DNA of 64,000 nucleotides from Promethearchaeati archaeon SRVP18_Atabeyarchaeia-1 (GTDB lineage: Archaea; Asgardarchaeota; Atabeyarchaeia; Atabeyarchaeales; Atabeyarchaeaceae): assembly GCA_037308085.1 (NCBI GenBank), contig CP147779.1, forward strand, positions 1,248,001 through 1,312,000, read 5' to 3'. Each line of letters begins with the position of its first letter. The stretch's first letter is position 1. Both the position numbers and the translations under genes were made by a program. Below are positions 3,743 through 30,759 of the stretch, in pieces. The notes under the pieces were generated by a model that was not told the DNA's origin, did no database searches, and saw only the letters and a list, made by a program, of their open reading frames with translations.

Positions 3743-3821
3743 AAACCTGCTCTGGCATAAAGGGCGGGTTCCTCAATCCTCCTTTTCTGATTCTCAGTCA
3801 GACAAGTTGAAAGCTTATTAG

Positions 3822-3945
3822 AGTTCTGTTACCTCTGCGGCTGATAACCGTTTAGGTCAACTTCTCCGCTTTGGCTCATAGCCTTGTTGAAGGGACTAAT
3901 CACTGCTACACGTGCGGAGCGATCCAGGGTGAACCGCACCCTTTC
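3822..3945 (-). ncRNA. Putative omega-RNA scaffold overlapping the tnpB 3' end
   Basis: GGGTG-CGGTT-CACCC hairpin, CTCCGC...GCGGAG long-range stem and a terminal hairpin using the TIR. Same architecture as 12433-12565. Overlap with the tnpB 3' end is typical of TnpB omega-RNAs. Confidence 0.6.
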
Positions 3946-5058
3946 ATCTTGGGCTTTAAGCATGTTCAGACAAGCATTTACATGTCGATCTATTCCGCAG
4001 CATTCTAGGGTTTTCGCTTTCGGGTCTCGCATGATACACCCACACACCGCGCATACCCTAGAAGTGTTCCAAGGACTCACTTTGACGGCTTTGACTCCTT
4101 CCCAGAGAGCCTTGTACTCGATGAAGCCTTGTAGCCTGTGGAAGCTCCACGAGTTCAGCCTCCGCTTCAGCCTCTTGGAGCGCACGCTGATCATCTGGAC
4201 CTTCCCGTTGAAACTGTTGACGCCTAGTGCTTTCCTGTTGATTGCCCTGCGGATGTGTCTAAGGTCTTCGAGAATAATGCCTTGCCCTCTGTTCTTCGCT
4301 TGCCTAACTATTGCTGAACTCACCTGATGCAGCATCGTGTTGACTTTGTTGTTCTGGTTAGCGAACCATCTTCTCTGGATCTTCGTCGCCACCCGCCTAT
4401 CCTTAGCGTACTTGGATTGAGCTCTCCGCACCCGCTCAAAGTACCCTTGCCTAGCCTCTGAAACTCCTGACAAGTCGTGGCTTTCAACAGCCAGTTCTCC
4501 GCCTTCTCTTACGTAGGCTCCATCTATTGAGCGTTCATTCGTGTCGTACGCCACGTAGCTCCCTGGTTCGGTAATCTCAGCGGTCTTCGAGAAAACCACT
4601 GAAACCGTGGAAGCAGTCAAGGTCACTGAGCCTAACTTGAGCGCGGCGTCTGATAGGAACTGTGCCGCCCTCTTGTGGAGGGGGACGTAGAAGTACTCTC
4701 TGGGCTTGATCGGTATTCTCAGCTTGCCGTCAACGACCTTGTAGGCTTGGTTTCCCAGTTTAGCCGTGAGCTTCGTAGCTCTCGGCACTCGAGCGTTCTG
4801 GCGCCTTCTCCTCTTCGCTTTCCGGTAGTTCTTCAGGATGGCGGTGGCAGCCTCTGTGGCTGAGAGGCTGTACCAGGTGTGGAGACCGAAACCACTTAGC
4901 TGGTGGTAGACCTCGCTTTGCAGGCTGAACCTCGAGGTCACATTCTTCTCCAGGCCGACGCGGATGCAGCAGTTAACCATGGTTCTGAAGGTTTCTAGTA
5001 GGCTGAGAACACGACTTGTAGGCTCGTACGGTATCTGCACCGCTTTAATTGCCTGCAT
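3829..5058 (-). CDS. tnpB: TnpB RNA-guided endonuclease homolog (RuvC-III Asp reads His)
   Basis: RuvC-I YVAYDTNE, RuvC-II IILEDL, W..SF..LQ..IEYKA, TSRVCAVCG Zn finger, DRHVNACLN. Likely start ATG 5058, about 25 bp below a TTTAAATA box. Confidence 0.9.
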   Translation of the reverse strand: MQAIKAVQIPYEPTSRVLSLLETFRTMVNCCIRVGLEKNVTSRFSLQSEVYHQLSGFGLHTWYSLSATEAATAILKNYRKAKRRRRQNARVPRATKLTAKLGNQAYKVVDGKLRIPIKPREYFYVPLHKRAAQFLSDAALKLGSVTLTASTVSVVFSKTAEITEPGSYVAYDTNERSIDGAYVREGGELAVESHDLSGVSEARQGYFERVRRAQSKYAKDRRVATKIQRRWFANQNNKVNTMLHQVSSAIVRQAKNRGQGIILEDLRHIRRAINRKALGVNSFNGKVQMISVRSKRLKRRLNSWSFHRLQGFIEYKALWEGVKAVKVSPWNTSRVCAVCGCIMRDPKAKTLECCGIDRHVNACLNMLKAQDERVRFTLDRSARVAVISPFNKAMSQSGEVDLNGYQPQR

Positions 5059-5237
5059 AAAACCAAATAAGCCAAAAATCTTATTTAAACTCACCAACCG
5101 CAGAGGTAACAGATCCCTTATTAGGTAGGATTGTAAGATCACAGCATGCTCCTAGATACGCGCGACGCATCTAGGCTTGCTAGAGGAGCCGTGTCGGGGA
5201 AGCGCACTCTGATGGCTACTCGGAAGAGGCGATTCAC

Positions 5238-6032
5238 TTGCCAAAGGTAAAATGCAATGACATAAACATCTGTTATGAGGTTCAAGGTAAGGGGTATCCG
5301 CTTGTAATGATAATGGGGCTATCCGCCAACATGGACTGGTGGGATCCAAAGCTAATCGAGGAAACCTCGAGGAAATACAAGATAGCCATCTTCGATAATC
5401 GTGGCGCCGGGCGCACCGACGCACCCAAGATTGACTATTCCATCAAGATGTTCGCCGACGACACAGCAAAACTAATGGACAACCTGAAGATACAGAAAGC
5501 ACACGTACTCGGCATCTCAATGGGGGGAATGATAGCACAGGAATTCGCTCTTACCTATCCACAGAGAGTTGAGAAGCTCGTCCTCTGCTCAACTAGCTGC
5601 GGAGGGATCAAATCAGTGCCTCCAGCACCCAAAATAATGAGCGTCTTAAGTGGCGGTGGAGCAAGGACACCAGAGGACCTGGTAAAGAATACTATCCCAG
5701 TCCTCTTCACTGAAGACTTCATTAAAGGCAATCCTGCCTTCATAAAAGTGGTAACTGAGCGACTTATGAAGGCGCCAATTGCGCTCGACGCGTATATGCG
5801 ACAAGTAAAAGCGATTATGGCGTGGGACACGTACGCTCGGCTTCCGAAGATCAAAGCGCCCGCGTTAGTGATGCACGGTAAGAAAGATATTCTTGTTCCT
5901 CCAGAGAACGCTAAGATCCTAGCTGATAGAATACCAGGGGCAAAGCTTGCATACTTCGATAATAGCGCACATGCACTTTTCTCGCAGGAAACTGACAAGG
6001 TGATCAGCACTCTGCTTCAATTTCTTGCATGA
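5238..6032 (+). CDS. Alpha/beta-fold hydrolase
   Basis: GISMGG nucleophile elbow, FDNRGAGRT, HGKKD, catalytic His in SAH. Confidence 0.9.
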   Translation: MPKVKCNDINICYEVQGKGYPLVMIMGLSANMDWWDPKLIEETSRKYKIAIFDNRGAGRTDAPKIDYSIKMFADDTAKLMDNLKIQKAHVLGISMGGMIAQEFALTYPQRVEKLVLCSTSCGGIKSVPPAPKIMSVLSGGGARTPEDLVKNTIPVLFTEDFIKGNPAFIKVVTERLMKAPIALDAYMRQVKAIMAWDTYARLPKIKAPALVMHGKKDILVPPENAKILADRIPGAKLAYFDNSAHALFSQETDKVISTLLQFLA

Positions 6033-6036
6033 CTAC

Positions 6037-7002
6037 CGCTCTGTTAACTCTTCGGGTGACAGTTGGTGCCGTTAGCTTCTCGGCCGTATGGTGGCCTTAT
6101 TAGTCGAAGTACCCCCTTTTTCGGGCAAGCAGGCGGTCAAAGCCGTCAAGCAGAGCTACACGCCACCAACCGAACTACTCAGCCTCCTAGACGAGTTCAG
6201 AAAGATGGTGAACGACTGCATACAAATCGGTCTGGCTGAGAATGTTACGTCGATGAAGGCGCTCTCAAAGAAAGCATACCGTGAACTCGCACGATACGAC
6301 GCGCCAACCTACTACCGTCTGACTGCGATTAGTAAAGCTACCGGGATCCTTCGGAATTATGGGCACGCGCTGAGGAAGCTGCAGAGGGTGAAGAAGCCCT
6401 ATGCAACAAGGCTCATGCTCACTGACTGCTACGGCTTCAAGATAATTAATGGCGAACTCAGACTGCCCATCAGGGCAAGAGAGTACATCCATGTTCCGCT
6501 GAACGCCTACACGTTGCAGTCTATTGAGGGTTCGACTGTCCGTTCAGTCTGCTTGAGCGCCTCCGCCCTGTCATTAGCTTTCTCGAAGGAGGTTACTCAG
6601 GCTGAGCCTGCGGGTCTAATCGGGGTAGACCGCAACCTCGACAACGTAACCGCTGCATCCTCAAACGAAGGTGTGAGGAGGTATAACCTGTCAAGGGCAA
6701 CCGATATCAAGGAGAACTGCAGGCAGGCCAAGCGGGGTTTCAAGCGAGGCGATTGCCGAGTCATGAAGCAGCTCTACTCCAAATATGGGCGAATCCAGAG
6801 GAACAAGGTAAACTGGATACTGCACAACACCTCAGCAAGCATAGTGGAGCAGGCGAAGGAGAAACAGTTCGGCATAGTCATGGAGGACATCAAGGGCATC
6901 CGAAAACTCTACAGGAAGGGAAACTGGCAGGGCAAGGACTACAGGGCGAGGATGGAGCAGATGCCACCCAGCTAACTCTTCAACCGAAGAGTTAACAGAA
7001 CC
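6037..7002 (+). mobile_element. Internally deleted TnpB element with IS6-like TIRs (element 2)
   Basis: 19/20 IR: TCTGTTAACTCTTCGGGTGA (6040-6059) vs TCAACCGAAGAGTTAACAGA (6980-6999). Right end reads GGTTCTGTT on the minus strand. Degenerate flanking repeat CATGACTAC/CACGAGTAC (7/9). Confidence 0.8.
6088..6975 (+). pseudogene. tnpB: Truncated tnpB (RuvC-I and RuvC-II present; Zn finger and RuvC-III deleted)
   Basis: GVDRNLDN and IVMEDIKGIRK; N-terminus paralogous to element-1 TnpB. After RARM the ORF runs directly into the last ~46 nt of the omega-RNA/TIR. Confidence 0.8.
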
Positions 7003-7246
7003 CACGAGTACTCTCCTTTTTCTTTTGATCTGAAGCAGACGAATCCATCGTCGAACTCAAGTTCACATGTTTTGATGGCGGTATTACGCTGATCGTCTCA
7101 GTAGACGATCCAGAACATACTAGCCTTGGAAAGGGATAAAAGTGCCGCGAACTCATTGATGTGTTAAGCATGGTAGGAGATGTCTTCGGCAAAGTATCAC
7201 GTGGGGGCGGTCACTGAAGTCCACGGAGTAAGAAGAGGTAGTCGAC

Positions 7247-7747
7247 ATGACAAAAGAAGTTAAGGTACTCATTACGGGTCCCTATCGAGTAGGAAAGTCA
7301 ACCCTAGTCAGATCGATGACTAGTGGAAGGGCCATTAACATAGATCGACGCGGCACAACGGTATGCATGGACTACGGCTACATCGACCTCGACGGGATCA
7401 GACTTCACCTCTTCGGAACACCGGGACAAGAAAGATTTGCCATCATACGGGAAGTACTCTCCACGGGCATGAGAATATTGGTCATGGTAATAGACTCGAC
7501 GAAACCAGACTCCATCGCGCAGGCAAAGAAGATCTTCGGTCAGCTAGCAATGAAAGATGTTCCGTGCATAATAGCCGCCAACAAGCAGGATTGCCCAGGC
7601 GCAATGACCCCCGCAGAAGTCCAGAGAACGATAAACCTTCGAATCCCGACTGTGGGCACTTCGGCAGTCTCAAGAGGCGGTGCACAACAGTTACTCGCAG
7701 AGATGTACAAAGCCGCTCTGAAAGTCCCAGCTTCACTTATGTCCTAG
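7247..7747 (+). CDS. MglA-like small GTPase
   Basis: GPYRVGKS, TTVCMDYG, LFGTPGQERF, ANKQD, TSA. Confidence 0.85.
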   Translation: MTKEVKVLITGPYRVGKSTLVRSMTSGRAINIDRRGTTVCMDYGYIDLDGIRLHLFGTPGQERFAIIREVLSTGMRILVMVIDSTKPDSIAQAKKIFGQLAMKDVPCIIAANKQDCPGAMTPAEVQRTINLRIPTVGTSAVSRGGAQQLLAEMYKAALKVPASLMS

Positions 7748-7831
7748 GGAGCCGACAAGGAGCGCTTCCTATCTCTTTCTTCTGGAGCAGTGGCAAGCGG
7801 GAATCGCAACCAGAGGATTTGATTGCCACGG

Positions 7832-8578
7832 TCATTCCGTCTTCAGGCGTATTCCCGTGCTGGCAATCTCATACTCGACGGGTTTGAGACTGTGCGTGGT
7901 TCCACGCATTTTCAGGATCTCAATATAGCGCTTTCTTTCCTCAGTGCCTTCACTCATGGTTCTCAGAGATATCACGCCATCTGTAAGGAACGAGTCAAAC
8001 CCGAGTGGAACCCTGTGTTCAAGGCCCTGCACATTCTCTGATGTTAGGAGCGCCGTGACAAGGGCAGCGCCCAGAGTCCTGATGATCGTGGTGATGTCGT
8101 ACCGCGTCTCGAACGGGTCCTTCCTACTCTGCGCAAAAGGAGTTACAGAGTCTATAACTACCCTCTTAGCATTGATCTCCATGATGTTCTTGTTTATCAC
8201 AGAGATTAGTTCCCCAACGTGAAATCCCTTCGCACCTAGCGCAGTCTCGTCTCCAGGGATAGCATAAGTCATCTCGCGATCAACAACAACCCTAACTGGG
8301 CTCACGTCGAGAACACGCAGCGAACCCTCAGCATCACACTTCGCCAGGTCGAATCCAAGCTCCTTCGCATTCTCAAAGAGTATCTCCTTGGGCTCCTCCA
8401 TAAGAGTGACGAGAACACCATTCTCCTTATGGTTGACTATCCCATCCAGCAAGAACTGCAGACCAAAGGTCGTCTTACCAGACCCAGGATCCCCCGACAC
8501 CAGAATAGATCTACCCTTCGGATAGCCGCCATCAATTAGCTCATCAAGTCCCGGTACACCTGTTGAAACCCGCTCCAA
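7832..8578 (-). CDS. Single-domain KaiC/RAD55-like ATPase
   Basis: STGVPGLDELIDGG, Walker A GDPGSGKT, EE, Walker B VVIDS, LKMRG. Confidence 0.9.
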   Translation of the reverse strand: MERVSTGVPGLDELIDGGYPKGRSILVSGDPGSGKTTFGLQFLLDGIVNHKENGVLVTLMEEPKEILFENAKELGFDLAKCDAEGSLRVLDVSPVRVVVDREMTYAIPGDETALGAKGFHVGELISVINKNIMEINAKRVVIDSVTPFAQSRKDPFETRYDITTIIRTLGAALVTALLTSENVQGLEHRVPLGFDSFLTDGVISLRTMSEGTEERKRYIEILKMRGTTHSLKPVEYEIASTGIRLKTE

Positions 8579-8918
8579 CTAGACGCAACCCCCACAACCG
8601 ACGATAGAAGCGACGAAAAGATCGTTGCAGACATTAACACTAGGTAATTCATTAGTGACACCGATTATTTATGGGTTTCCTAAATCGGGATCGGGATCAT
8701 TTCCTTCTTCTTAATCCAAAATGTGCAACGCCTACTGAAAACCAGCTGCCACTGTACGTGGTAATTGCAGACTCATGCGGCCAATAACGGAATACGAATA
8801 AAGGATCAGAACCCGCAAACATGGAGGCCCGTTTCTAATTCAAGCTCGGACGACAGGAAATTGGGGAAAAAAAAGGAGGGGATTAGACTTTTCTTAGCGG
8901 AATTGCGCAGCAATCAGC

Positions 8919-10499
8919 CTACTTTATACTGACAGCCTTGGAACCAGACCTTTTTCGCATGAACATCAGACCAGCAACAACAATGATGGCACCCAGTGCA
9001 CTGACAATCAACAGCATCGTTGGTAGGCCGGATGGACTAGTTAGAGGCGACAACTCCACAGTGTAGGTATACGCTGGGTCGTCACACACATATAGCACGC
9101 CAGTCGCGGACCAGTATTGTGTCGCGTTCACTGGTGTCCTTGTCCCACTATCGACTTTCCAAACGGCCTTGACAGTGTACCCATCAGGAACTGCAAGTTT
9201 GAAGTACACCCAGTCTCCGAGAGATACCTTCGACAAGGTAACGTTGCGGATGCCGCCAGTGCCAGTCACTGCACCCGTGTGATCCACGAGTTGATCGGGC
9301 TCGCCAGTTCCATTGGTCGCAAAGTCAGGGACCCCATCCCAGCCATAGTCGACGAAGAACATTGTGCTACCGCCAAAGTGAGTGCTACCCTGTGCGCCAC
9401 CCCCGGTGACATCAATCTGATGGGCATAGCTGCCGTAGTAGACTATAACACCGACCTTCTTCCACACAATCGTTGCGTTCTCAGGAACCTGTATTTCATA
9501 CGTGTTCAATGACCATTGTCCACCACTGTCCGCAGTCTTGACTTCCCAGTTACTTGTAACCGCGAGTCCAAGGTAAAGTCCAAGCTCAGCAAAGACGTTG
9601 ATATCATACTGAATGTTGACATACATATGAAGCGCATCGCTGTAGCCACTGATGCCCCCATGCCCAACTACTGCAAAGTCGACTACCAGGTCAATGAATC
9701 CTCCCGCCATCAGGAGGATGTTGTCAGGCGAGGTTCCACTTGTCTTCCATACGTCAATTTTGCCAACACATTTCACAACATTGAAACCGCCTTGGATTCC
9801 AGGTATGTTAAGATCCTGGAGTGCTGTGGATACCTTACTCCATACCGAATTGAGTGCGCCTTGTATTCTGTTTCGTAGCCAAGCGCTGAAATCCCACTGA
9901 ACATGGTTTACAACGTAGTTTGTTCCTGTCCATGTGTCATTTGCGTCTGTGAACTTAATCGTCAGAGGATTGGCGCTACCAGTATGAGTGACAGGGTCTA
10001 CGCTCTCAATTGCTGGGAACGGAATACTGAAGTTCTTCGTGGTTCCTGTCGGAATAAGCCATTTGGCGTCCCAACTTGTGCTAGAATTCCACTTATTGTA
10101 GAACACATTCGCTGTGCCATTCACGTCAATGTTTACGTCGATCACCAGCATCGCATTGACAGCAATGGTTGCCGTGACAATTCCTGTTGACGTGCTAACG
10201 TTTATGTCATGGGCCGCAACTGATATCTTGGCACCTATGTACAGCTTGTTGACGTTGATGCTGTAGGAATGGAAACCAGCAATGTTTGTAGTGATGATAA
10301 CGTGTCCTGACGCGTTGATCCAGGCCATGAGAGTCCCGTTTACGTCATACAAGAGTGATCCAGGGATGGTCATAGCCATTTGCCGTTGAGGTGCCGCCTC
10401 ATTCTGCTGTGTCGAAGTTGCTGTCGCTGGAGATGCGAACGCTGCTGTTGTCGCTAGAATTGCGATGAAGAGTGCTGCGAAGATAGCTTTACCATTCAA
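8919..10499 (-). CDS. Secreted, C-terminally anchored beta-rich surface (glyco)protein
   Basis: Signal peptide after likely TTG start at 10499 (GGGGAG upstream), many N-x-S/T sequons, C-terminal TM followed by RKR. Confidence 0.75.
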   Translation of the reverse strand: MNGKAIFAALFIAILATTAAFASPATATSTQQNEAAPQRQMAMTIPGSLLYDVNGTLMAWINASGHVIITTNIAGFHSYSINVNKLYIGAKISVAAHDINVSTSTGIVTATIAVNAMLVIDVNIDVNGTANVFYNKWNSSTSWDAKWLIPTGTTKNFSIPFPAIESVDPVTHTGSANPLTIKFTDANDTWTGTNYVVNHVQWDFSAWLRNRIQGALNSVWSKVSTALQDLNIPGIQGGFNVVKCVGKIDVWKTSGTSPDNILLMAGGFIDLVVDFAVVGHGGISGYSDALHMYVNIQYDINVFAELGLYLGLAVTSNWEVKTADSGGQWSLNTYEIQVPENATIVWKKVGVIVYYGSYAHQIDVTGGGAQGSTHFGGSTMFFVDYGWDGVPDFATNGTGEPDQLVDHTGAVTGTGGIRNVTLSKVSLGDWVYFKLAVPDGYTVKAVWKVDSGTRTPVNATQYWSATGVLYVCDDPAYTYTVELSPLTSPSGLPTMLLIVSALGAIIVVAGLMFMRKRSGSKAVSIK

Positions 10500-10600
10500 A
10501 TGCTTTATCTCCCCACATTTCCATTTTGTTTCGCGTTGATCCCACTGTATGCCCACCGTCGCTTAAAAATGTTGAGGACGTAATCGGTGTATGAAGAATG

Positions 10601-10676
10601 TATATAAATGTATATTTTTAGAATAATGGCTATTTTGTGTGGCAAAGACTGCTGTAAAATATATATAAATGTATAT
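10601..10676. promoter_or_regulatory. Two copies of quasi-palindromic 15-mer TATATAAATGTATAT
   Basis: Exact direct repeat at 10601-10615 and 10662-10676 in the divergent intergenic region. Confidence 0.55.
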
Positions 10677-11026
10677 CTGATATGACTTGGGAATGTTAGA
10701 TCCCTAATGGAAAAGCTGTCTGAGAGTGGGGAGTGAGGTGGAGAACTTGGGTAATTTCCTGCCCGTAGAAGGACATCTCAGCCCCAAGCCCCAAGATGAT
10801 GCAGACCAACGGTAGGCTGGACGTAGAAGCTGCGGAACGTCGAAGCCGATAAGATATTTAACGTGAAGGCGAATGATGTACATCTCTCATGAAGACGCAC
10901 CTAACATCAGGCATCACACACCTGAGTATCCAGAGAGAATGCATTGCGTCACAAGTTGGCAGAGTTGCACACGAATTTCCTGAAAAGAGTTATTGGGTCA
11001 GAAATTCCCGATGAGATGCTCAGCGT

Positions 11027-11635
11027 ATGGAGAAGAGCTATAGTCCGCGCGAGGCTGCAGCCATACTTGGCGTTGCAGTGCACACCATTCAAGTATGGGA
11101 CAGACAGGGCAAGATACGCTGCGTCAGGCTACCTTCTGGCCGGAGGCGTGTTCCCGAGAGCGAGGTTAGACGCCTCCTGAACGTAAAGGAGGAGAGGAAA
11201 GACGCAATATATGCGAGGGTTTTCTCCAGCAACCAGAAGGGAGAACTCGAGAGGCAGGTAAGCTTACTGAAAGAATTGGCGCCCAGCGCGGTAGTGTACA
11301 CCGATGTTAGATCTGGCTTGAATTTCAAGAGGAAAGGATTATTCCAGCTTCTAGAGGATCTCGTCGACAGGAAGATCGCCAGACTCTTCATTGCGCACGA
11401 AGACAGGCTTGCAAGGATCGGATATGAGCTCATATCATGGTTGTGCGAGAAATACGGCACAGAGATAATCGTCGCAGAGAAGGAGGTAAATCCTTCTCTC
11501 CGACAAGAGTATGGCAAGGATATGATTGCACTCAACATGGCATTTTCGGCGAAGCTTTTCGGGTTGAGGAGTCATAATACAGCTAGGATTCTTCGAGCTG
11601 TAAAGGACGCCATAGCCGAAACGAGGTCTTCTTGA
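11027..11635 (+). CDS. tnpA: IS607-family serine recombinase TnpA (MerR-type HTH + resolvase), probably inactive, no tnpB partner
   Basis: YSPREAAAILGV...WDRQGKI HTH; YARVFSSNQKGELERQ, SGLNFKRKG, EDRLARIG, FSAKLFGLRSH. Confidence 0.85.
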   Translation: MEKSYSPREAAAILGVAVHTIQVWDRQGKIRCVRLPSGRRRVPESEVRRLLNVKEERKDAIYARVFSSNQKGELERQVSLLKELAPSAVVYTDVRSGLNFKRKGLFQLLEDLVDRKIARLFIAHEDRLARIGYELISWLCEKYGTEIIVAEKEVNPSLRQEYGKDMIALNMAFSAKLFGLRSHNTARILRAVKDAIAETRSS

Positions 11636-11703
11636 ATCGGAGATGAAGGTGCGATTCGCCAAGCCAGGATTATTCATAATGTGGGAGGGGGAATGCTAGA
11701 TAT

Positions 11704-12387
11704 ATGAGAATTTTCGCATCACGCAAGGTTAGGATGGAGGCTATCGAAGATTCTGGCGTGGCAACGTCGTTTGACCGTATAACCGGCATGCCTCAGTTTG
11801 GGCTTCTCCTGCGGCTATTTACCTTGAAGGCGCTCAGCAGTCAGAGTGGCGGTAGAGTCATTGACATCGGTTGCGGCGGAGGGCGACTTGTCCTCAGGCT
11901 TGCGAAAAGTTATCCCTTTGAAGAAGTCATCGGTCTGGACCTGTCTGACAAGATGCTGAGGCTAGCTAGAAGGAGGGCGATAGATGCAGGTCTCGGTGAT
12001 CGAGTCAAGTTCAAGGAGGGGAACGCGGAAATGATCCCATACCCCAGCGGATCGTTTGATCTGGTTGTGAGCACTCTGTCCTTGCATCACTGGTCGAGAC
12101 CAGAGCTTGTCTTCGATGAGATTGCGCGGGTTCTTAGGCCTGCGGGAAAGTGTGTGTTGGGAGACATGCGCAGAGATCCCATGCCCGTATTCACGGGGCT
12201 TATGTGGGTTGTAACGCATTTCATAGTTCCACGCTCTCTGAGGCGCGCAGGAGAGCCTCTTGGGTCTCTGCAGTCAGCATACACGAAGGAGGAGACCTCT
12301 GCCTTTTTGCAGAAGTCCAAACTCGGAGCCTTCAGCAAGGTCACAACGGGACCATTCTGGCTAATCATCAAAGGAAGAAAAATGTGA
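11704..12387 (+). CDS. Class I SAM-dependent methyltransferase
   Basis: VIDIGCGGG, GLDLS, GNAEMIPYPSGSFDLVVS, SLHHW, LRPAG. Confidence 0.9.
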   Translation: MRIFASRKVRMEAIEDSGVATSFDRITGMPQFGLLLRLFTLKALSSQSGGRVIDIGCGGGRLVLRLAKSYPFEEVIGLDLSDKMLRLARRRAIDAGLGDRVKFKEGNAEMIPYPSGSFDLVVSTLSLHHWSRPELVFDEIARVLRPAGKCVLGDMRRDPMPVFTGLMWVVTHFIVPRSLRRAGEPLGSLQSAYTKEETSAFLQKSKLGAFSKVTTGPFWLIIKGRKM

Positions 12388-12432
12388 TGCGCGTAGCAGA
12401 ACAGGCGGGTTGAAGTAGATACTCTATCTCAA

Positions 12433-12565
12433 GGTTCTGTCAAGTCTTCGGTTGATGACTCGACTGACTCGCATCGACTTTCAGGATTACCTTTCCTTCC
12501 GTTCCGAGGGTTCCTGTACCATCGCTTCACCTGCGAGTCCCTTCAGGCCGAACCACAGCCCTGCA
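12433..12565 (-). ncRNA. Stand-alone putative TnpB omega-RNA
   Basis: CAGGGCTG-TGGTT-CGGCCTG hairpin, perfect GACTCGCA/TGCGAGTC stem, terminal CGAGTC...GACTTG hairpin. 3' end colinear with the end of element 2. Confidence 0.65.
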
Positions 12566-12701
12566 CCTGCTTCCACGTCTACACAGGTTCTCTCTTTCCC
12601 CTCCGCCTTCAGCTATAAAGCCACATACCGCGGAGCGAGAAGACTCTTAGACTCACTACCCCGTTCCCAACATATAAATCAACCATAGACTTTGCAGAGC
12701 C
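12433..12701 (-). mobile_element. 269-bp MITE with IS6-like TIRs carrying only a putative omega-RNA (element 3)
   Basis: Ends GGTTCTGTCAAGTCTTCGGTTG and (reverse complement) GGCTCTGCAAAGTCTATGGTTG match at 17/22. TSD TATCTCAA (12425-12432) / TATTTCAA (12702-12709). TTTATA box just inside the upstream end. Confidence 0.8.
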
Positions 12702-12976
12702 TATTTCAACAAAGAATTTATATAGAAGTATGATTCGCCTTCTAGGAAGGATGAATATTACCATAAGGTAACAAATAGCGTTGTCTCCACTGCTTAGAGA
12801 CAGCGTTGAACTGACTCTATTTAGGGACTCGGCATAATCTGAACTTGTCACTAAAGTCAACTCTAAACCAGCAAGTTGTCTTGCCCTTAACGATGGGACA
12901 TGTCATGTCGGAGGCGTTGACGGGTTTGGCGTCTCACAAGGATCAGCGTAGCACTTCAGGCAAGGAAAAGACCAAG

Positions 12977-13651
12977 ATGCTAGGCGAGGCATCTGAGGAG
13001 ACAAACACGCCGGAAGCCAGTGAAGCGCCAAGAGAGGAACAGAGCGCAACACCGACGACGCCGATCGCAGATCCCATGGAAAACGAACTAGAATTATTGC
13101 GGAAATCACTTCAGGAGGAAAAGGATAGAGCGGAACAATACCTTGTTTCGCTCAAGTACCTGAAAGCTGAATTCGAGAACTATCAGAAGAGATCCGCAAA
13201 GGAAATGGATGAACTCGCCAAGAGGGGAAGCGAGAGGCTTGCCCGAAAGCTGCTCGGAATCGTGGATGACATCGAGAGAACAATTAATGCATGCAAGGCT
13301 GTAGGCGACCAGAGCAAGCTGCTCGCTGGCGTCGAGATGATCCTAAAAGAACTCGTCAATACCCTCAGAAGCGAGGGAATATTCAAGATAGAGGCAGTCG
13401 GCAAGAGGTTTGATCCTCAACTTCACGAAGCTATCATGGTGAAGAAGACAGACGAATGTCCTCCTGGCACTGTGGTTGAGGAGTTGAGAGCCGGCTACAT
13501 GTTTGATGGCAGAGTCATTAGGCCAAGCATGGTAACGGTGGCAAATCCGCCTGACCGGCAAGGCAGTCCTGAGCCAGAAAACAAGGTGAAAGGTGGGGGA
13601 GGGCAGAGGACAAGCAGTGGTGTTGACAAACGACCCCTCCACGAAACATAG
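12977..13651 (+). CDS. grpE: Nucleotide exchange factor GrpE
   Basis: AEFENYQKR, FDPQLHEA, GYMFDGRVIRPSMVTV. Start uncertain (ORF open from 12845). Confidence 0.95.
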   Translation: MLGEASEETNTPEASEAPREEQSATPTTPIADPMENELELLRKSLQEEKDRAEQYLVSLKYLKAEFENYQKRSAKEMDELAKRGSERLARKLLGIVDDIERTINACKAVGDQSKLLAGVEMILKELVNTLRSEGIFKIEAVGKRFDPQLHEAIMVKKTDECPPGTVVEELRAGYMFDGRVIRPSMVTVANPPDRQGSPEPENKVKGGGGQRTSSGVDKRPLHET

Positions 13652-13727
13652 AAGCATCAGCTGATGCCGGATACCTGCAATACAATAATGAATATCACGT
13701 AACAACTGTATCGGTTCATGGAAAGAG

Positions 13728-15719
13728 GTGAATAGACTGATGCCTTCCTCAAAAAGCGAGGCCTCTGAATGGCAGAAGCAAGAGGCGGGAAAGAAAGAGA
13801 AAGTCCTTGGAATAGATTTGGGGACAAGCAACTCAGCAGTAGCAGTCGTGATGGCCGGAAGACCAGTTGTTATCCCGGCCTCTGAGGGCGTGTCCGTTAC
13901 AGGCAAAGCTTTTCCTTCGTTCGTTGCATTCACAAAGGACGGTCAGCTACTTGTCGGAGAACCGGCGAGACGGCAAGCTGTTAGCAACCCTGAGGGAACA
14001 ATCTTAGAAGTTAAACGGAAAATGGGAACCAACGAGAAGATCAAGGTCTTCGGAAAGGAGTATACACCACAGCAGATATCAGCATTCATCCTGCAGAAAA
14101 TGAAGAAAGACGCTGAGACATTTACAGGTGAGAAGTTCGAGAAAGCCGTAATCACAGTTCCTGCCCATTACAACGACAACCAAAGGCAGGCAACCAAGGA
14201 TGCTGCCGAAATAGCTGGGCTCAAGACAATAAGGCTCATCAACGAACCTACCGCCTCAGCGCTGGCATACGGCGTGGACAAAGCTGGAAAAGAACTGAAG
14301 ATCCTCGTGTTCGAACTTGGCGGCGGAACATACGACGTCACAATCATGGAGTTCGGAAAAAATGTCTTTGAGGTAAAAGCAACCAATGGTGACACTCACC
14401 TCGGTGGAACAGATATGGACAAGAGAGTCACAGACTATATTGCCGACATGTTCAGGAAAGATACGGGCATCGATCTGAGAAATGACAAAATGGCCGCGTA
14501 CCGCTTGAAGGAAGCGTGTGAAAAGGCGAAGATAGAACTTTCCACAACCTTGGAGACAGAGATCAACTTGCCGTACATAACGGCTGACGCCACCGGTCCC
14601 AAGCACCTGAACTATAAGATGACGAGGGCCAAACTCGAGGAACTAGTGTCTCCGATACTGGAGAAATGCAAGGAGCCCCTTAGGCTGGCACTGGCCGACG
14701 CTAAGATGACTCCGCAGGACATTGACAAGATTATTCTCGTGGGAGGTCCAACCAGGATGCCCCTAGTAAACAGGTTCGTTGAGCAGATGCTAGGGAAGAG
14801 ACCTGAGAGGGGCGTTGACCCTATGGAGTGTGTGTGCATAGGTGCCGCAATACAGGGTGCAGCTCTGGCTGGAGAGATAAGCGACATACTACTCTTGGAC
14901 GTTACCCCACTATCGCTGGGAGTCGAGACTCTCGGAGGGGTTATGACGAGAGTCATGGATAGGAATACGACAATTCCTGCCAGAAGAAGCCAGATATTCA
15001 CTACGGCAGCAGACTTCCAGACCGCCGTAACCATACATGTGCTCCAAGGGGAGCGTACGATGGCATCGGACAACATATCGCTTGGAGTGTTCAACCTCAC
15101 TGGAATACCGCCCGCACCAAGAGGGACTCCTCAGGTTGAAGTCTCGTTCGACATAGATGCCAGTGGTATCCTTCACGTCACTGCAAAGGACATGGCCACG
15201 GGCAACAAACAGGAGATAGCCATAACCGCCTCCACGAAGCTGAGTCAAGAACAGAAAGACCGCATGAACAGAGAGGCTGAAACCTACGCGGAACAGGACA
15301 AGCAGAAGCGAGACGAGATCGAAACTCGAAACAACGCGGACTCCATGATCTACCAAGCTGAGAAAATGCTTCGCGACCTGGGCGAGAAGGTCTCCAAGGA
15401 CAACAAAGACAAGATAGAGAAGGCCATCAAGGAACTTAGAGGGGCGCTTGATGGAAAGGACATCTCGGGCGTCAAGGCGAAAATGGGGGAGCTATCCAAT
15501 GTGCTCCAGGAAGCTGGCGCAGCAATGTATCAGCAAGCGGGACAGCAGCAGGGACAACAGCAGCAGGGACAACGACAGCAAGAGGGACAACAGCAACAGC
15601 AGCAGGACCAACAAAGATATCCAGGCGATCAGAACAAGGGACAGAACAAGAGCTCACCAAAGGGCGGAGAAGACGTGGTCGACGCAGAATTCAAGGAAGT
15701 AAATGATGAGGACAAGTAG
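13728..15719 (+). CDS. dnaK: Chaperone DnaK (Hsp70)
   Basis: [43 protein letters not shown]. Confidence 0.98.
15531..15614 (+). repeat. Low-complexity (GGA)CAG/CAA repeat encoding the Gln-rich DnaK tail
   Basis: [28 protein letters not shown]. Confidence 0.8.
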
Positions 15720-15898
15720 GGTTAGCTTTCCACTGCCTACCCTAGAATGCCACTCTTTTCTTTAATCAAAGGCTGCCATGCCCTACCATCCTTCGGCTTG
15801 TGAGATGATTTGCTGCTACTACAAAATTAATAGAAGACCTGTGTATTCTTAGGTACAGGACTAGGGCGAGGCAATGTCCGCTCTAAGAGGTAATTTGT

Positions 15899-17017: not shown

Positions 17018-17146
17018 GTCCCCAGCTGGAATAGCAGGGAATATTAAAATACGGGAGGCAATGTTGGATACTCAGTATTCTTGATCCTTCTTGGGATGCC
17101 CTGGCTTGATACCTTCATAGCTGATGAAGAGGGGGCAACTACTCGA

Positions 17147-18493: not shown

Positions 18494-18520
18494 CAGAAAA
18501 GAATCAGGCCAGTGACTCAC

Positions 18521-19231: not shown

Positions 19232-19516
19232 TTCATTTCCTCCAACCGGTCAACCGAGCTGATCTGAATACAGTAAGGTCCGATATCCGAGATCTTCTAT
19301 CTGAGTAATATTGGTTTTGTCCGCATATTACATTATTGATCAGCCTTCTTGCAGCCCAGCGGTAAGCTAGGGAACTTTGGCAACGTCTCGAAGGAAAACC
19401 AGAAGTCATCAAAAATGTAAGGTAATTAGAATTGGAGTGCCGACGAGTCAGCAAGGGAAAGAGCGAAGGTTCTTAGCATGCAGCCTGCCTTGCATGTTTC
19501 CCCAGCCCCGCCTGAC

Positions 19517-20095: not shown

Positions 20096-20206
20096 AATTG
20101 GTTCCGACGCTAAGAATATGACCCTAATGCGTGTACTTCAAAGCCTCATGTGTCTTAAAATATTATGGGAAAAAGCGGATGAGAATTCGTCTTTCCTTCA
20201 GATAAC

Positions 20207-21004: not shown

Positions 21005-21086
21005 GCCAAGAAGACGAGCCAAATCCGACCATGCCCGAGAAATGGTTTTATATTAAAGGTCGGGTTCTTCTAGGACATTCGCGGAT

Positions 21087-21278
21087 GTGAGCCTAGTGAA
21101 AGACAAAGATGAAGATGAATCCCCTCCATCACCGGAGCAGCTGAAGAAGGATAAGGAGATTATCGCCAAGCTGCAGAGCAAGAGGAAAGAGGAGCTCAAG
21201 CAGACTGAGCTAGAAAAACCGGCCGACAAGAAGAAGGCCGAAGCTCTGTTTGAGAAGAGGCTCAAGAAAGAGAAATAA
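21087..21278 (+). CDS. Small Lys/Glu-rich hypothetical protein
   Basis: 63-aa charged helical ORF with a TTTATAT box ~35 bp upstream. Confidence 0.5.
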   Translation: MSLVKDKDEDESPPSPEQLKKDKEIIAKLQSKRKEELKQTELEKPADKKKAEALFEKRLKKEK

Positions 21279-21364
21279 AGGGAACAGGAATTGAATCGAG
21301 CTCCCGCGGTGCGCTTCCCTTCCCTACGCACACACAAATGTCATTAGGTCAGCAGAGATAGGCG

Positions 21365-24300: not shown

Positions 24301-24412
24301 TGCTTGCTGATGGAGGAGGAACGGAAGGCGTCAAGACTGGCATATTAAACGAGGCTATCATCATTGTCGCGAGTATCAGTGACACCAATAATAGTGAACT
24401 ACTTTTCCTCAA
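21365..24412 (-). CDS. Single-pass membrane protein: large beta-rich ectodomain + TM + cytoplasmic longin-like domain
   Basis: Signal peptide (likely TTG start 24412), sequon-rich ectodomain, TM IIGGGGGALVVALVGIL, then IVVHLASGRALYS...DPNLISGFLSA...FEKKY...WDGD. Confidence 0.75.
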   Translation of the reverse strand: MRKSSSLLLVSLILATMMIASFNMPVLTPSVPPPSASTFGGYPQTSFSPPASQSGNGYPMDLTESVNGWQSYNLNANNTFAQYSNRTAFFYNNPSQPAWQDITIKNIVAANDIREIQGGDPTADYGCGQLSAGPPPRYPMLAMSLTPTDTVNITVIRLFYSAFNNPPAIMLHIVPDSGGPQATPAPIALSLGYGWLSNSANPAWHNVSVSTPTGLPITLTGGTRYWIVMDGSSIVGFGNYYQWYYSPDPTPPPYDEKLACYYTNNWKQESDLGPGWNFLALVRVLPVSDSMQPRQYSSPAQVNMYLYLNATTQPIDRNTTQVGNNVRLFMFVTNTSVTFTVNWTARMEVFSAGAVTTRYIARDDFTLWNATFTSDGKPGNPYTWYNKTFKVTPIPPFWNGTAHPPNIWNNRTYVSSFTNSSSYYLISQISNLSNAWNSDWLISVKSIYAITVSVPSKAIEGCAFNLTISAPLAYSSITINAYNSTDSLVNSTTIHIGSSTVYSLKLNKGDNYNITFLDTYDLENEVSFATSEINVVRAQTAIKLASPVIGATWGDIIALSVRYLNETDAANATFPSSPVPAFRVGSVVATGVTQHAGGCYNFSYSTRNLPSAGSHLLTIYASYNGAYLNQTAFTLNLSKIPMSVSLQVAETSVTVGSSLSVSAALKYGNGTSAPNGFGIQFNFIVTYTNGSVITIIRSAVINGGVGESSLPATSDMKSINVNATYLGDGITKSASDLKLNIEVVIPQGLSLLTIAIIGGGGGALVVALVGILRLRSSRKRTEERKAKVLMQTTSLAQLIVVHLASGRALYSRSIGSEESVDPNLISGFLSANQAILGEVFKKQTGAGLKFADYGQYKVVSNVGNYIMATLFCTEAAGEELQGVLRSFTENFEKKYAATLKSWDGDPNAFKGADDVADEVFAMPLCSPYMLLEAPSAKLNRVERAAVHTARMLSAERGVFFMPRVVDFLLTKQGLRRGKAMDVINSLTKKGVFRQLTVEQAAQVAKSWTDRTTNQA

Positions 24413-24643
24413 GTCCCTTTTCTCCTCAATCTTCAGCAATCGGAGGAGGCACCGCGGCACATTTCTGCCCAGATGAAGAGACAGATACACCTTGGCGGGC
24501 AAGGCGGTGAAGAGTCCTCTGCTAGTTCTTAGATTCCCCCTTTAATATAGCTTCTGACATCCTCGCAGATGGCTCGGACTGCGTTGCGAAAACAACAACG
24601 GACACCCCAGACCTGTACGGCTGTTCCACCAGCTCAGCAACTG

Positions 24644-27352: not shown

Positions 27353-27662
27353 AACGATCTTCCTGCACTCCTCATACTGAGGAAAACCGTCCTTCCAGAA
27401 TCGCCGCCCGAAACACTAGGTAAAAGGTTGATCAATACTGATATTTCGTCCGCTATAATAGTTTTCTGTTTCTCCGCAGATCACTTGACCCCCGTTGCGA
27501 AGGTAACAGGAACTGGGGCATCAACGAAGACCAAATAGCTATAATATATGGTGCGCAGATAAACGAACAAGAGCTCCCCAGCATCTTATGAAGACTCCAA
27601 GAGCCTGCTGTTACGAATGCCTTGCTTGGCTTTGTCTATTGCTTCGAAGAGAAGGAGGTATT

Positions 27663-29435
27663 ATGACTGGGATGTCTGATATCCTTGACAAGAGATTTCT
27701 GATAGCCCCCCGCGAAACTGAGGACAAGCGTGCCTCCCTTGATCAGGCGATTAAAGAGTTCGTGAAGCCCGGGATCACCTTGCATGTTTCATGTGCGGGA
27801 ACAATTCCATACGGGATTGGCTACGAAATCATCCGGCAGTTTGTGGGCAAGAATCCCCAGTTCAGAATTGTCGCCTTGGGTGCCACAAATCTCGTTCAGC
27901 TTCTATGTGCTACTGACCTCGTGGGTTCTCTTGTCGTCAGCTATGCTGGTGATATCTACCCAAGGCCAAATGTCTCTGCAGTGTTCCAACGGGCATTCAA
28001 GAGGGGTGTCAAGATCGAGAACTGGTCCATAGTCTCACTCATTTCGAGGCTCGTTGCGGGTGCAATGGGACTTGAATTCCTTCCAACCAGATCCATAGTG
28101 GGGTCCTCGATGGAGAGAGATAACAAGGATTCTTTCACAACCATTGACGACCCGTTTGGCACTGGTGCGAAAGTCGGATTGGTGAAGTCGCTGAGGCCCG
28201 ACGTGTCGATTGTTCACGCTTGGTGCGCTGACAACGCAGGCAATGCAATAATAGTTCCTCCTCTTGGAGATAGTAACTTCGCCTTCTACGCAAGCACTGG
28301 CGGAGTCATAGTCAGCGCTGAGAAGATAGTTCCAACGGATTTCATCAGGCAACACGCTACGATGACAAGAATACCTGGTCATCTTGTGAAAGCAGTTGTG
28401 GAGCTACCGTTTGGCGCGCATCCTAGCGCCCACTTTGGACTCCATGGGGAAGGCTATAGCGAGGACCTACAGTTCATAGTCAACCTCAGGCAAATCGGGA
28501 AAGATGAGGCGACTCTGAAGAAATGGATCGACGACTGGATTCTCGGAGTAGACCACAACAAGTACCTTGCGAAGCTTGGAACGGAGCGTCTCATGTCTCT
28601 GGTTGGTCTTAGGAATCCCGAATCGTGGAAGACCGAGATCAGGAATAAGCTGGGCATGATCCCATTTGATGAGAACTGCAGTAACATCGAGAGGGTAGTA
28701 ATCAACGGTTCTCACGAGGTTATCGAATCAACCGTCAAGGCGAATTACAGGGTTATGCTTGCGGGACAGGGAATATCGAATCTGGCTGCGTGGATGGCCC
28801 TCTATGCCCTCAGAGATAGGGGTTTGCCGGTGAATCTGCTCGCGGAGATTGGTTTCTACGGATATTTGCCGCGCGCTTCAAGCCCCTTCATATTCAACAA
28901 GAGCAACATACCAACATGCCTGATGCTGACCGACTCATTTGAAGCGCTGGGCATGACCTTAGGTAGCAGAGACAGCATCGCTGTACTCGCAGCAGCGCAG
29001 ATAGACAAGAAAGGGAACATCAATGACACGAGGGTCGGTGACTTCTTCCTTGTCGGGTCAGGCGGCGCTAATGACATCGGATCGAATGCCAAAGAGATAG
29101 TCGTTGTCGCTCCTCATGAGCCCCTCAGGTTGGTCAGCGAAGTTCCCTACGTGACCGTTCCGGGTGAGAAGGTCACAAAGCTCGTGACGGATCAGGCCGT
29201 TTTCGAGAAGATCGATGGAGAACTTGTGCTGACCAAGTGCCTTCCCCTCTTTGGTCTGCCAAATGACATGATTGTAGCAGCTTTGTCCAAGAGAACCGGC
29301 TGGAAACTCAGCGCAACAGAGGGACTACTATTCATGAAAGAGCCTAGCAGATATGAGATCCAACTGCTCCGCCTCTTCGACCCAGATAGATACTTCGTCG
29401 GAAAAGCAAAGGAAGCAAGCAAACGGGAACAGTAG
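27663..29435 (+). CDS. Fused family I CoA-transferase (glutaconate CoA-transferase A+B-like)
   Basis: AGAMGLEFLPTRS, PFGAHPS, AAQIDKKGNIN, GSGGANDI. Confidence 0.85.
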   Translation: MTGMSDILDKRFLIAPRETEDKRASLDQAIKEFVKPGITLHVSCAGTIPYGIGYEIIRQFVGKNPQFRIVALGATNLVQLLCATDLVGSLVVSYAGDIYPRPNVSAVFQRAFKRGVKIENWSIVSLISRLVAGAMGLEFLPTRSIVGSSMERDNKDSFTTIDDPFGTGAKVGLVKSLRPDVSIVHAWCADNAGNAIIVPPLGDSNFAFYASTGGVIVSAEKIVPTDFIRQHATMTRIPGHLVKAVVELPFGAHPSAHFGLHGEGYSEDLQFIVNLRQIGKDEATLKKWIDDWILGVDHNKYLAKLGTERLMSLVGLRNPESWKTEIRNKLGMIPFDENCSNIERVVINGSHEVIESTVKANYRVMLAGQGISNLAAWMALYALRDRGLPVNLLAEIGFYGYLPRASSPFIFNKSNIPTCLMLTDSFEALGMTLGSRDSIAVLAAAQIDKKGNINDTRVGDFFLVGSGGANDIGSNAKEIVVVAPHEPLRLVSEVPYVTVPGEKVTKLVTDQAVFEKIDGELVLTKCLPLFGLPNDMIVAALSKRTGWKLSATEGLLFMKEPSRYEIQLLRLFDPDRYFVGKAKEASKREQ

Positions 29436-29479
29436 CAGCAGTAGGATGGGGTTCCCTAAAAGCCAATATTGCTCTCCGT

Positions 29480-30628
29480 TCACTTTCTGGTTTTTTCGTA
29501 CCGGTCAATGCCAGGTGGAGGTATCTTGGGTTCAAGCTCCGATAGTTCTGTTATTAGTTTCCTTTGCTCACTGGTGAGTTTAGATGGAGTGCGCAAAACC
29601 ACTCTGACTAGTTCGTCCCCCTTTCCATGAGACTTGAGCTTCGCTAAGCCTTTGCCTTTCAGACGAAGAACTGTCCCACTCTCGGTTCCAGGAGGAATGC
29701 TAAACTTGACGATGCCATCCAGTGTTGGAACGGAGACCTCGTCGCCCAGCACAAGCTGAGAGTAATTTACAGGCAGATTGTACAGGATGTCTGGTCCACG
29801 CCTTTCAAAAACCTCGTCTGGCTGGACTCTTATCACGACATAGAGGTCACCTGGGGGGGCCCCTCGCTCGCCGGCTTCTCCCTCTCCCTCTAGCCGAAGG
29901 ACTGAGTCAGTGTCGACACCAGCTGGGATTTTGACTTCCAGTTTTGTATTCTTCCTCGTTGTCCCTGTTCCACCGCATACGGGACATGGGTGTGGTATGA
30001 TCTTCCCAGTTCCTCGGCATTTGTCGCAAGACGTGATCTGAACTATCTGCGTGTAACCTGCATTACGCACGTAACGCAATTCCCCACTTCCGCGGCACTT
30101 CGGGCATGTTTGTGGTTGAGTCCCTGGCTTGACTCCACTTCCGCGGCAATTATCGCACACGGATCTTCTGGGGATTTCAAGCTCTACCTTCGTGTCAACT
30201 GCCGCTTGCTGAAGGGTAATTGTGAGTTCTCGCTCTACGTCTCGCCCTTGAGCGGGTCCAGAGGGTCTGCCTGCGCTGAACCCGCCTCTTCTTCCAAATA
30301 GCGAGTCAAAGATGCCACCGAATCCGCCAAACCCGAATCCAAGGTCCCGGAAAACATCGTCGAAGTTCGCTCCCCGGAAGATGTCTTCGGATGAGTACCT
30401 GCCGGAGATCCCAGCATGCCCAAACCGGTCATACTGTGCCCTCTTATCATCGTCCGAGAGAACAGCGTAGGCCTCAGAGATCTCCTTGAACTTCTCCTCC
30501 GCGCCTGGGGACTTGTTACGGTCAGGATGGTACTTTAGAGCAAGATCACGGTAGGCCTGCTTTATCTGATCCTTGGTAGCATCCTTGGGAATGCTCAGCA
30601 CCTCATAGTAATCCTTTTTCTCACTCAT
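29480..30628 (-). CDS. dnaJ: Chaperone DnaJ
   Basis: KDYYEVL, HPD, G/F-rich region, four CxxCxGxG repeats. Confidence 0.98.
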   Translation of the reverse strand: MSEKKDYYEVLSIPKDATKDQIKQAYRDLALKYHPDRNKSPGAEEKFKEISEAYAVLSDDDKRAQYDRFGHAGISGRYSSEDIFRGANFDDVFRDLGFGFGGFGGIFDSLFGRRGGFSAGRPSGPAQGRDVERELTITLQQAAVDTKVELEIPRRSVCDNCRGSGVKPGTQPQTCPKCRGSGELRYVRNAGYTQIVQITSCDKCRGTGKIIPHPCPVCGGTGTTRKNTKLEVKIPAGVDTDSVLRLEGEGEAGERGAPPGDLYVVIRVQPDEVFERRGPDILYNLPVNYSQLVLGDEVSVPTLDGIVKFSIPPGTESGTVLRLKGKGLAKLKSHGKGDELVRVVLRTPSKLTSEQRKLITELSELEPKIPPPGIDRYEKTRK

Positions 30629-30707
30629 GGCTGAGACACATCCCTCGTCTACTGATTGAAGCAAGAGGTTTCGATATTCTATGACTCAGATCTGAGAACA
30701 GATTTTA

Positions 30708-30759
30708 AGGTTTGTTGCCTCTGCGGTTGTTGATATCGGTTTGAGGTAGCTTCTCCGCT
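30708..30759 (-). mobile_element. Remnant right end / omega-RNA 3' end related to element 1
   Basis: Minus strand AGCGGAGAAGCTACCTCAAACCGATATCAACAACCGCAGAGGCAACAAACCT aligns with element 1 AGCGGAGAAGTTGACCTAAACGGTTATCAGCCGCAGAGGTAACAGAACT. Confidence 0.7.

Follow-up and report, generated by a model that had tools for sequence, protein, structure and literature searches.

Why should a gene for a TnpB nuclease lie between symmetric inverted repeats and be flanked by a short duplication of its target? TnpB is usually explained by its partnership with the scarless, duplication-free transposition of IS605 and IS607 elements. The question is raised here by a window of 64,000 nucleotides (the whole stretch analysed, positions 1248001–1312000 of a single 2.81-Mb contig), in which a preliminary description made from the letters alone had noted four related tnpB/omegaRNA elements with inverted ends in a probable Asgard host. 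The host is indeed of the Atabeyarchaeia type. The window was compared with G001, a metagenome-assembled genome (MAG) of an Asgard archaeon of the same genus, and with G002, a member of the same family, Ca. Atabeyarchaeum deiterrae. The answer we consider probable is that these are IS6-ended tnpB/scaffold transposons, which would be moved in trans by IS6-like transposases and whose guide and target-adjacent motif (TAM) would be aimed at the empty allele.

Elements, inverted ends and empty sites

All four elements lie where they had been placed: an intact 1295-bp tnpB element (element A), an internally deleted copy (element B), a 269-bp miniature and an end relic of about 55 bp. Their ends are true terminal inverted repeats of 19–25 bp, of the form GGTTCTGT(T/C)A.... 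A search with the end motif TCTGTYAMNTCTKCGG, allowing at most two mismatches, finds six matches in the window (at 3825, 5098 on the minus strand, 6040, 6984 on the minus strand, 12436 and 30711) where about 0.9 are expected, and six were reached in none of 100 shuffles. Carried to the whole genome, as had been proposed, the scan for paired ends with duplications gives 22 paired matches, and 11 of the 13 full-length pairs (1228–1295 bp) are flanked by duplications that agree in 7 or 8 of 8 bases. In all, the genome contains about 14 full-length copies, some 1.26–1.30 kb in length. The ends are of type A (GGTTCTGTTACCTCTGCGGTTGAT), type B (GGTTCTGTTAACTCTTCGGGTGAT) or type C (GGTTCTGTCAAGTCTTCGG).

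The full-length form carries tnpB as its sole gene, with a structured scaffold that overlaps the last ~150 nt of tnpB and stops exactly at the tip of the element, and the miniature form retains the ends, a TATA box and the scaffold only. The TnpBs found within these ends (tblastn, whole genome) form two clades, A and B, with ~37–40% identity to each other. About 17 further, more distant tnpB genes in the same genome have no such repeats or duplications by the same search, and the association is therefore specific to the two clades. The features of element A and its flanks are:

3814–3821, no strand: duplication copy CTTATTAG on the tnpB-3′ side, which would form the first 8 nt of the guide region
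3822–5116, minus strand: element A, a transposon that is non-autonomous, 1295 bp long and without any gene other than tnpB; inverted ends matching at 17/19 positions, exact 8-bp duplication CTTATTAG
3822–3840, minus strand: tnpB-3′ terminal inverted repeat (plus strand: AGTTCTGTTACCTCTGCGG), in which the stop codon of tnpB and the 3′ arm of the scaffold's final hairpin also lie
3822–3971, minus strand: predicted omegaRNA scaffold, wholly inside the tnpB 3′ end and stopping at the tip; match to the B/miniature covariance model at 33.8 bits, E 1.7e-7
3829–5058, minus strand: tnpB, 409 aa, intact; RuvC-I D, RuvC-II E, RuvC-III DRH; Pfam Cas12f1-like_TNB 52 bits, NCBIfam guided_TnpB 89.7 bits
5082–5089, minus strand: predicted promoter of tnpB, a TATA-like box (TTTAAATA) just inward of the 5′ repeat
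5098–5116, minus strand: tnpB-5′ terminal inverted repeat (read inward: GGATCTGTTACCTCTGCGG), a match to the end motif
5117–5124, no strand: second duplication copy CTTATTAG, adjoined on its outer side by TAC (tnpB orientation), where TTA is usual for this clade

Those of element B, the miniature and the relic are:

6025–6036, plus strand: TTG (6025–6027) followed by the 9-bp duplication copy CATGACTAC (6028–6036), on the tnpB-5′ side of element B
6037–7002, plus strand: element B, a tnpB element of the B clade that has lost 294 bp internally (junction 6954/6955) and retains the repeats 6037–6055 and 6984–7002
7003–7011, no strand: second, decayed 9-bp duplication copy CACGAGTAC (7/9)
12425–12432, no strand: duplication copy TATCTCAA of the miniature, next to the scaffold 3′ end
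12433–12701, minus strand: miniature of 269 bp with no tnpB, consisting of 5′ repeat, TATA box, omegaRNA scaffold and 3′ repeat; site empty in G002
12433–12588, minus strand: omegaRNA scaffold of the miniature, covariance-model match of 169 bits
12671–12678, minus strand: predicted scaffold promoter, a TATA box (TTTATATG) that follows the 5′ repeat immediately and is conserved in position in 7/7 miniatures
12702–12712, no strand: duplication copy TATTTCAA (12702–12709), then CAA (12710–12712), which is TTG in scaffold orientation, a TAM-like motif
30708 to ~30765, plus strand: solo A-type 3′ end remnant (repeat plus ~40 nt of scaffold), similar to the 3′ end of element A, with dnaJ on one side and a SIR2-family gene on the other

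For three of the window elements a locus without the element exists in G001, in G002 or in both, and these empty sites show that the elements are bounded by the repeat tips and not by IS605-type ends. Excising element A together with one 8-bp copy restores colinearity with both relatives, and excising the miniature with 8 bp restores it with G002. The 8-bp flanking repeats that had been described as clear for two elements are thus confirmed, being exact at element A and a 7/8 match at the miniature (TATCTCAA/TATTTCAA). At element B, whose site is empty in both G001 and G002, excising the element alone leaves a 9-nt gap, and excising 6037–7011 yields a gapless alignment to G001. Its duplication is one of 9 bp, decayed to 7/9 (CATGACTAC/CACGAGTAC), where the earlier reader saw none. 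An adjacent deletion was considered as the reason for the seemingly missing duplication and was rejected when realignment showed the decayed copy.

Contigs assembled from public runs have loose ends at 3823 and 5113, the limits of the element A repeat unit. A joint of 12377 to 12712 in one wetland run was examined as an empty allele of the miniature and set aside as too weak: one side is only 26 nt long, and the joint skips 334 nt, not 277.

Element B corresponds to positions 1–918 plus 1213–1261 of a full-length copy at genome 1697571–1698831, and its ends are perfect across a 16-base core. The deletion took RuvC-II, RuvC-III and most of the scaffold; contigs from full-length B copies continue beyond the 6954 junction. 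The genome holds seven copies of the miniature, each made of the 5′ repeat, a TTTATAT(A/G) box, about 150 nt homologous to B-clade 3′ ends and the 3′ repeat. In the window the miniature lies directly upstream of a TTTATATA box (region 12702–12730) that precedes grpE (12845–13651), and may affect the grpE promoter. The grpE and dnaJ genes (Pfam; in the stretches 12845–15719 and 29480–30664) lie near two of the elements, and nothing else there is unusual; a 663-aa open reading frame at 13728–15719, directly downstream of grpE, is by its position a candidate dnaK.

IS6-like transposases outside the window

The preliminary description had taken the ends to be of the IS6 type and had postulated a DDE transposase, absent from the window, that moves the elements in trans. 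Both proposals agree with what we find. The tip GGTTCTGTT, which is present at nearly all 3′ ends of the family, fits the bacterial IS6/IS26 consensus GGTTCTGTTGCAAA given in the available text of PMC6807381, where G1, G2 and G7 are fixed and the duplications are of 8 bp; all three G residues are in place here. IS6-like transposases with matching ends are encoded at genome 549896–551047 and 615503–616258. They are the two Pfam DDE_Tnp_IS240 genes of the genome, and each lies inside a larger element that has matching ends and an 8-bp duplication; G002 contains a comparable element:

Genome 614149–618567: element Y, 4419 bp, with 25-bp perfect A-type repeats and the duplication TGAAAAAA/TGAAAAAC (7/8)
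Genome 549276–555829: element X, 6554 bp, with B-like repeats and the exact duplication TGGAGAAC
G002: transposase-bearing cargo element, 6159 bp, with C-type repeats and the exact duplication TGGATTTC

The ends of these three elements also carry the tip GGTTCTGTT. Within this archaeal family each end type has a cognate transposase element, the C-type one being in G002 and not in this genome. The X and Y transposases are 78% identical; they match Pfam DDE_Tnp_IS240 at 63.7–67.6 bits (cut-off 27) and cover the NCBIfam IS6 model end to end at 116.1 and 120.7 bits, the next family scoring below 48 bits. We infer that the IS6-like DDE transposases of these larger, same-ended cargo elements would supply mobility to the tnpB elements in trans. 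The transposase-bearing units, of 4419, 6554 and 6159 bp, carry several genes, unlike the compact single-gene IS6 form of ~0.7–0.9 kb. The cargo of Y comprises an HxlR-like regulator and other small genes. The cargo of X includes a 995-aa Eco57I/MmeI-like type IIG restriction-modification enzyme, and its transposase has an N-terminal SWIM zinc finger; X is thereby also a case of a defence gene carried on an IS6-like transposon.

No full scaffold was found in X, Y or the G002 element with the covariance model, which gives only end-sized matches of 11–15 bits, and no single element encoding both transposase and TnpB was found. Contig C238 of G001 appeared to hold such a dual element and was rejected: it is a cargo element inserted into a tnpB copy. 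In this case (L156: 715–3463) the right end of an IS6-like cargo element lies inside a B-clade tnpB, so that one member has landed in another. In elements X and Y the ~90 nt next to each tip also contain two or three more motifs similar to the repeat, one of them being GCTGTTACTTTTCGGTTGA. These may be additional transposase-binding sites, and they have no counterpart in the tnpB elements.

Scaffold, one-sided motif and nuclease

The claim that ends, RNA scaffold and nuclease have co-evolved is supported for the first two only: the ends vary together with the RNA hairpin and with one another. The B-type scaffold alignment combines four B-clade 3′ ends with seven miniatures and contains 31 pairs. 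In these, 97.7% of cells are paired, compared with 25–41% when the partners are slid by 1–3 columns; nine pairs are compensatory, and none of the shuffles attained these values. In the last hairpin the inner bases of the repeat are paired with those just upstream, and in 5/9 of its pairs both partners differ between the TTAAC and TCAAG end types. In the A-family alignment 34 pairs are found, six of them compensatory, including a switch from U-A to C-G in the copy with C-type ends. The inner bases of the repeat appear to have two roles, one in the transposase site and one in the scaffold, where they form the 3′ arm of the final hairpin. A strict three-way link with the nuclease is not supported, since end types and TnpB clades are mixed: an A-clade body with C-type ends lies at genome 655232, and B-like TnpBs with TTACC ends occur in G001.

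The covariance model built from B copies and miniatures finds copies on which it was not trained in G001 and G002 at 120–144 bits, and matches A-clade 3′ ends at 29–40 bits; Rfam has no family matching window positions 3000–13500 at E ≤0.1. An extra scaffold-like match at genome 2751907–2752055 (44.5 bits) ends in GGTCCTGTTTACTCTTCCGG, read inward, and may represent a fourth end type. Metatranscriptome contigs match the element A tnpB at 100% identity over 4040–4793, and a contig from an RNA library covers 12299–12561, crossing the 3′ boundary of the miniature. Both carry no strand or RNA-end information, and 21 of the 30 bins of a 9.9-kb stretch are uncovered in the same metatranscriptome; these data are a hint that tnpB A and the miniature are expressed.

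Copies were oriented by tnpB or scaffold and the three bases just outside the duplication were read. In clade A these are TTA in 7/12 copies on the 5′ side and in 1/12 on the 3′ side (background 0.9%). For clade B together with the miniatures they are TTG in 10/15 on the 5′ side and in 0/15 on the 3′ side (background 1.9%), and element B, after realignment, has TTG directly before its duplication. The choice of TTA or TTG follows the clade (p = 2.5e-4), and does so also in the mixed cases. We suggest that the one-sided motif may be an indirect trace of the TnpB TAM.

The same motif could also be a target preference of the IS6-like transposase, to which a TAM has at most evolved to match, as in IS605, where the TAM matches the TnpA target. 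Such a reading gains from element Y (GATTA before its left duplication) and the C-type element of G002 (ACTTG), which carry neither tnpB nor a full scaffold and still show the one-sided motif, making two of the three cargo elements. We regard it as unlikely overall. Near-identical repeats predict a symmetric preference, and the 3′ sides give 1/12 and 0/15; the A-clade body with C-type ends has TTA, and the B-like TnpBs with TTACC ends in G001 have TTG in 2/3 cases, as their clades would have it. Element X, the third cargo element, shows neither TTA nor TTG.

The proteins themselves are clearly of the TnpB family. They match Pfam PF07282 and NCBIfam guided_TnpB (89.7 and 108.9 bits), and a PDB sequence search returns TnpB/Cas12f matches over short zinc-finger and RuvC stretches only. 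In both clades 7 nt separate the tnpB stop codon from the tip. Clade B has the canonical catalytic residues D, E and DRD. In all A-clade copies D and E are present, RuvC-III reads (D/N/G)RH and not DRD (Asp to His), and the second zinc-finger half is shortened.

This last observation could mean that TnpB, at least in clade A, is no longer a nuclease and serves as an RNA-guided DNA binder, for example as a repressor of flanking genes or of the element's own, and nuclease-dead TnpB relatives with regulatory roles are discussed in the main text of PMC10691335. The same text reports the Asp-to-His change at RuvC-III from other TnpB branches, where it is conserved, and reads those branches as probably active. 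Clade B, moreover, retains D/E/D. The five intact A-clade copies have a ratio of nonsynonymous to synonymous divergence (dN/dS) of 0.14–0.20 at dS 0.54–0.97, and such strong purifying selection, together with the spread of copies and the TAM-like motif, fits a role in the element's own propagation. A pure DNA binder thus seems distinctly improbable. Synonymous divergence between A-clade copies is lower over the last 52 codons in 8/10 pairs, as an overlapping RNA would predict. Any two A-clade copies share at most 89% identity, yet their 8-bp duplications are nearly intact, and they therefore look like separate insertions of long-diverged functional lineages, not a burst within this genome.

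That these are ordinary IS200/IS605 elements of the IS1341 group, moved by a Y1 TnpA and with incidental inverted ends and repeats, can be dismissed as extremely improbable: three Y1 transposases and numerous other tnpB genes are indeed encoded, but no Y1 gene adjoins an A or B copy, the distant tnpB genes have no such ends, the ends are common to DDE-transposase elements, more than 15 independent copies have 7–8/8 duplications (chance ~0.04% each), and the empty sites in relatives record the gain of the element plus 8–9 bp.

The IS6-ended transposon with a guided TnpB, which we prefer, would work as follows. Transcription would read through the 3′ repeat into the flank, so that the guide would begin with the freshly made 8-bp duplication and continue into the downstream flank. 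The empty allele would consist of the TAM, the 8-bp target and the flank, and would thus offer a full guide match beside a TAM (TTA for clade A, TTG for clade B). The occupied site would be protected, having a repeat tip where the TAM should be. By cutting or binding empty alleles, TnpB would then promote the copying of the element into such alleles; because it would act on empty alleles next to a TAM, surviving insertions would be those beside one.

A more ambitious form of this idea, which we put forward tentatively and hold to be possible, is that IS6-like transposase and TnpB together could form a self-programming drive. Each insertion would make its own guide seed, would be armed against its own empty allele and would be immune to itself, with the TAM just outside the duplication and the repeat tip doubling as the terminal hairpin of the scaffold. 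The task of TnpB would then be allele conversion, whether in polyploid cells or following DNA exchange, and not repair of the donor site, since excision may never occur in IS6-type elements. The lineage would be an old one, spread across Asgard archaea, Nitrososphaeria and Bathyarchaeia.

Several points weigh against the transposon model itself. IS26 works by copy-in; if these elements do the same, they never leave the donor site, and the reason usually given for TnpB loses force. Transposition, RNA ends and cleavage are all predicted from DNA sequence. Cutting by clade A is uncertain, given the His in place of the catalytic Asp of RuvC-III; element A has TAC in its flank instead of TTA; two of three cargo elements that have no tnpB show the one-sided motif; and no contig assembled from the public runs bridges an empty site for element A. 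On the side of the transposase, the Y protein may be defective, as it has no counterpart of the ~134-aa N-terminal SWIM/zinc-ribbon region present in X and in the homologues of G001, G002 and G011. The X and Y transposases also fall just under the NCBIfam IS6 cut-off of 125 bits, and archaeal 'IS6' elements have longer repeats and a disputed family membership according to the available text of PMC6807381. Given the dispute and the score below the cut-off, 'IS6-like' is the safe term.

Spread and comparison with known systems

The architecture is not special to this host; it is widespread in archaea. We surveyed 80 loci with related TnpBs (28–84% identity), 69 of which could be scored by a narrow motif. 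The motif is present at both ends in 17 of the 69 scorable loci and at one end in 29 more, and many of the 80 loci, in Nitrososphaeria, Bathyarchaeia and Asgard genomes, have GGTTCTG-type ends and 7–8/8 duplications. Nitrosotalea genomes with such elements encode several DDE_Tnp_IS240 genes, some beside the same kind of end. In the available text of the paper on the Atabeyarchaeia genomes, five IS-like transposons are reported, as are mobile elements from 1.3 kb up, and neither TnpB nor IS6 is named.

The novelty of the system had been rated too highly. In their main text, Altae-Tran et al. 2023 describe six DDE-associated TnpB branches (DDE-1 to DDE-6), all with inverted ends and with IS630 as the only partner named there, as well as solo TnpBs, probably mobilised in trans, whose ends are those of transposase-bearing elements (PMC10691335). 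A 2026 review gives ISL2, IS630 and IS1031 as DDE partners of TnpB and does not name IS6 in the text available (PMC13565253); likewise, TnpB is not mentioned in the available text of a review of the IS6 family, which lists a single member with a passenger gene and two miniatures (PMC7986276). A search for literature on TnpB together with IS6 found nothing relevant. Judged by the main text of PMC10691335, four features were not found described and are apparently new: the IS6-like partner, the duplication acting as guide seed with the TAM outside it, the repeat within a hairpin, and the scaffold-only miniatures.

These elements matter in several ways. TnpB is here stably tied to a duplication-making DDE transposon that may replicate without excising, and the anatomy states how guide, TAM, duplication and self-protection would fit together, so that a role of TnpB on a DDE transposon becomes testable. 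The family also yields compact pairs of TnpB and scaffold with short TTA or TTG motifs, and natural scaffold-only miniatures with their own predicted promoter. For annotation, many archaeal tnpB genes labelled 'IS1341-like' merit a check for IS6-like ends.

Among known systems, the DDE-associated TnpBs of PMC10691335 share the symmetric inverted ends, a tnpB whose 3′ end is at most 250 bp from the end of the element, and solo copies probably mobilised in trans. They differ in that here no element encodes both genes, and the transposases are found in cargo elements of 4–6.6 kb.

With the IS6/IS26 elements (IS26 and IS257; in archaea ISH14 and ISH29) the family has in common the GG tips, G7 and the cTGTt motif, being identical to the consensus over GGTTCTGTT. 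It also shares the 8-bp duplications (9 bp is known for ISH15) and a DDE_Tnp_IS240 match, with the IS6 model as best family match at a score just under its cut-off. Typical IS6 members, however, are 700–890 bp long and have one gene, whereas here the transposase elements are 4.4–6.6 kb long and carry cargo, and abundant derivatives carry tnpB.

Fanzor-bearing transposons with terminal inverted repeats resemble the present family in carrying a TnpB-family nuclease as cargo of duplication-making DDE transposons, many copies of which are non-autonomous; they differ in being eukaryotic or viral, longer, and associated with other partner superfamilies (PMC3627910). No specific sequence link to Fanzor was seen, the PDB match to a TnpB-like viral protein being weak (E 1.4e-4). 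The elements described here are likely a prokaryotic analogue of these transposons.

The nuclease and its RNA also resemble the TnpB/omegaRNA systems of IS200/IS605 elements (ISDra2, IS608 and the IS1341 group), which have the same TnpB family, a scaffold that overlaps the 3′ end of the gene up to the element end and, as is predicted here, a guide taken from the flank and a TAM 5′ of the target in the empty site. IS200/IS605 elements have no inverted repeats and make no duplication; they have subterminal hairpins and insert 3′ of a fixed site of 4–5 nt. TnpB elements of this type rely on a Y1 or serine TnpA and on scarless excision. In the family described here, by contrast, the duplication lies between the TAM and the element, where it is predicted to form the first 8 nt of the guide.

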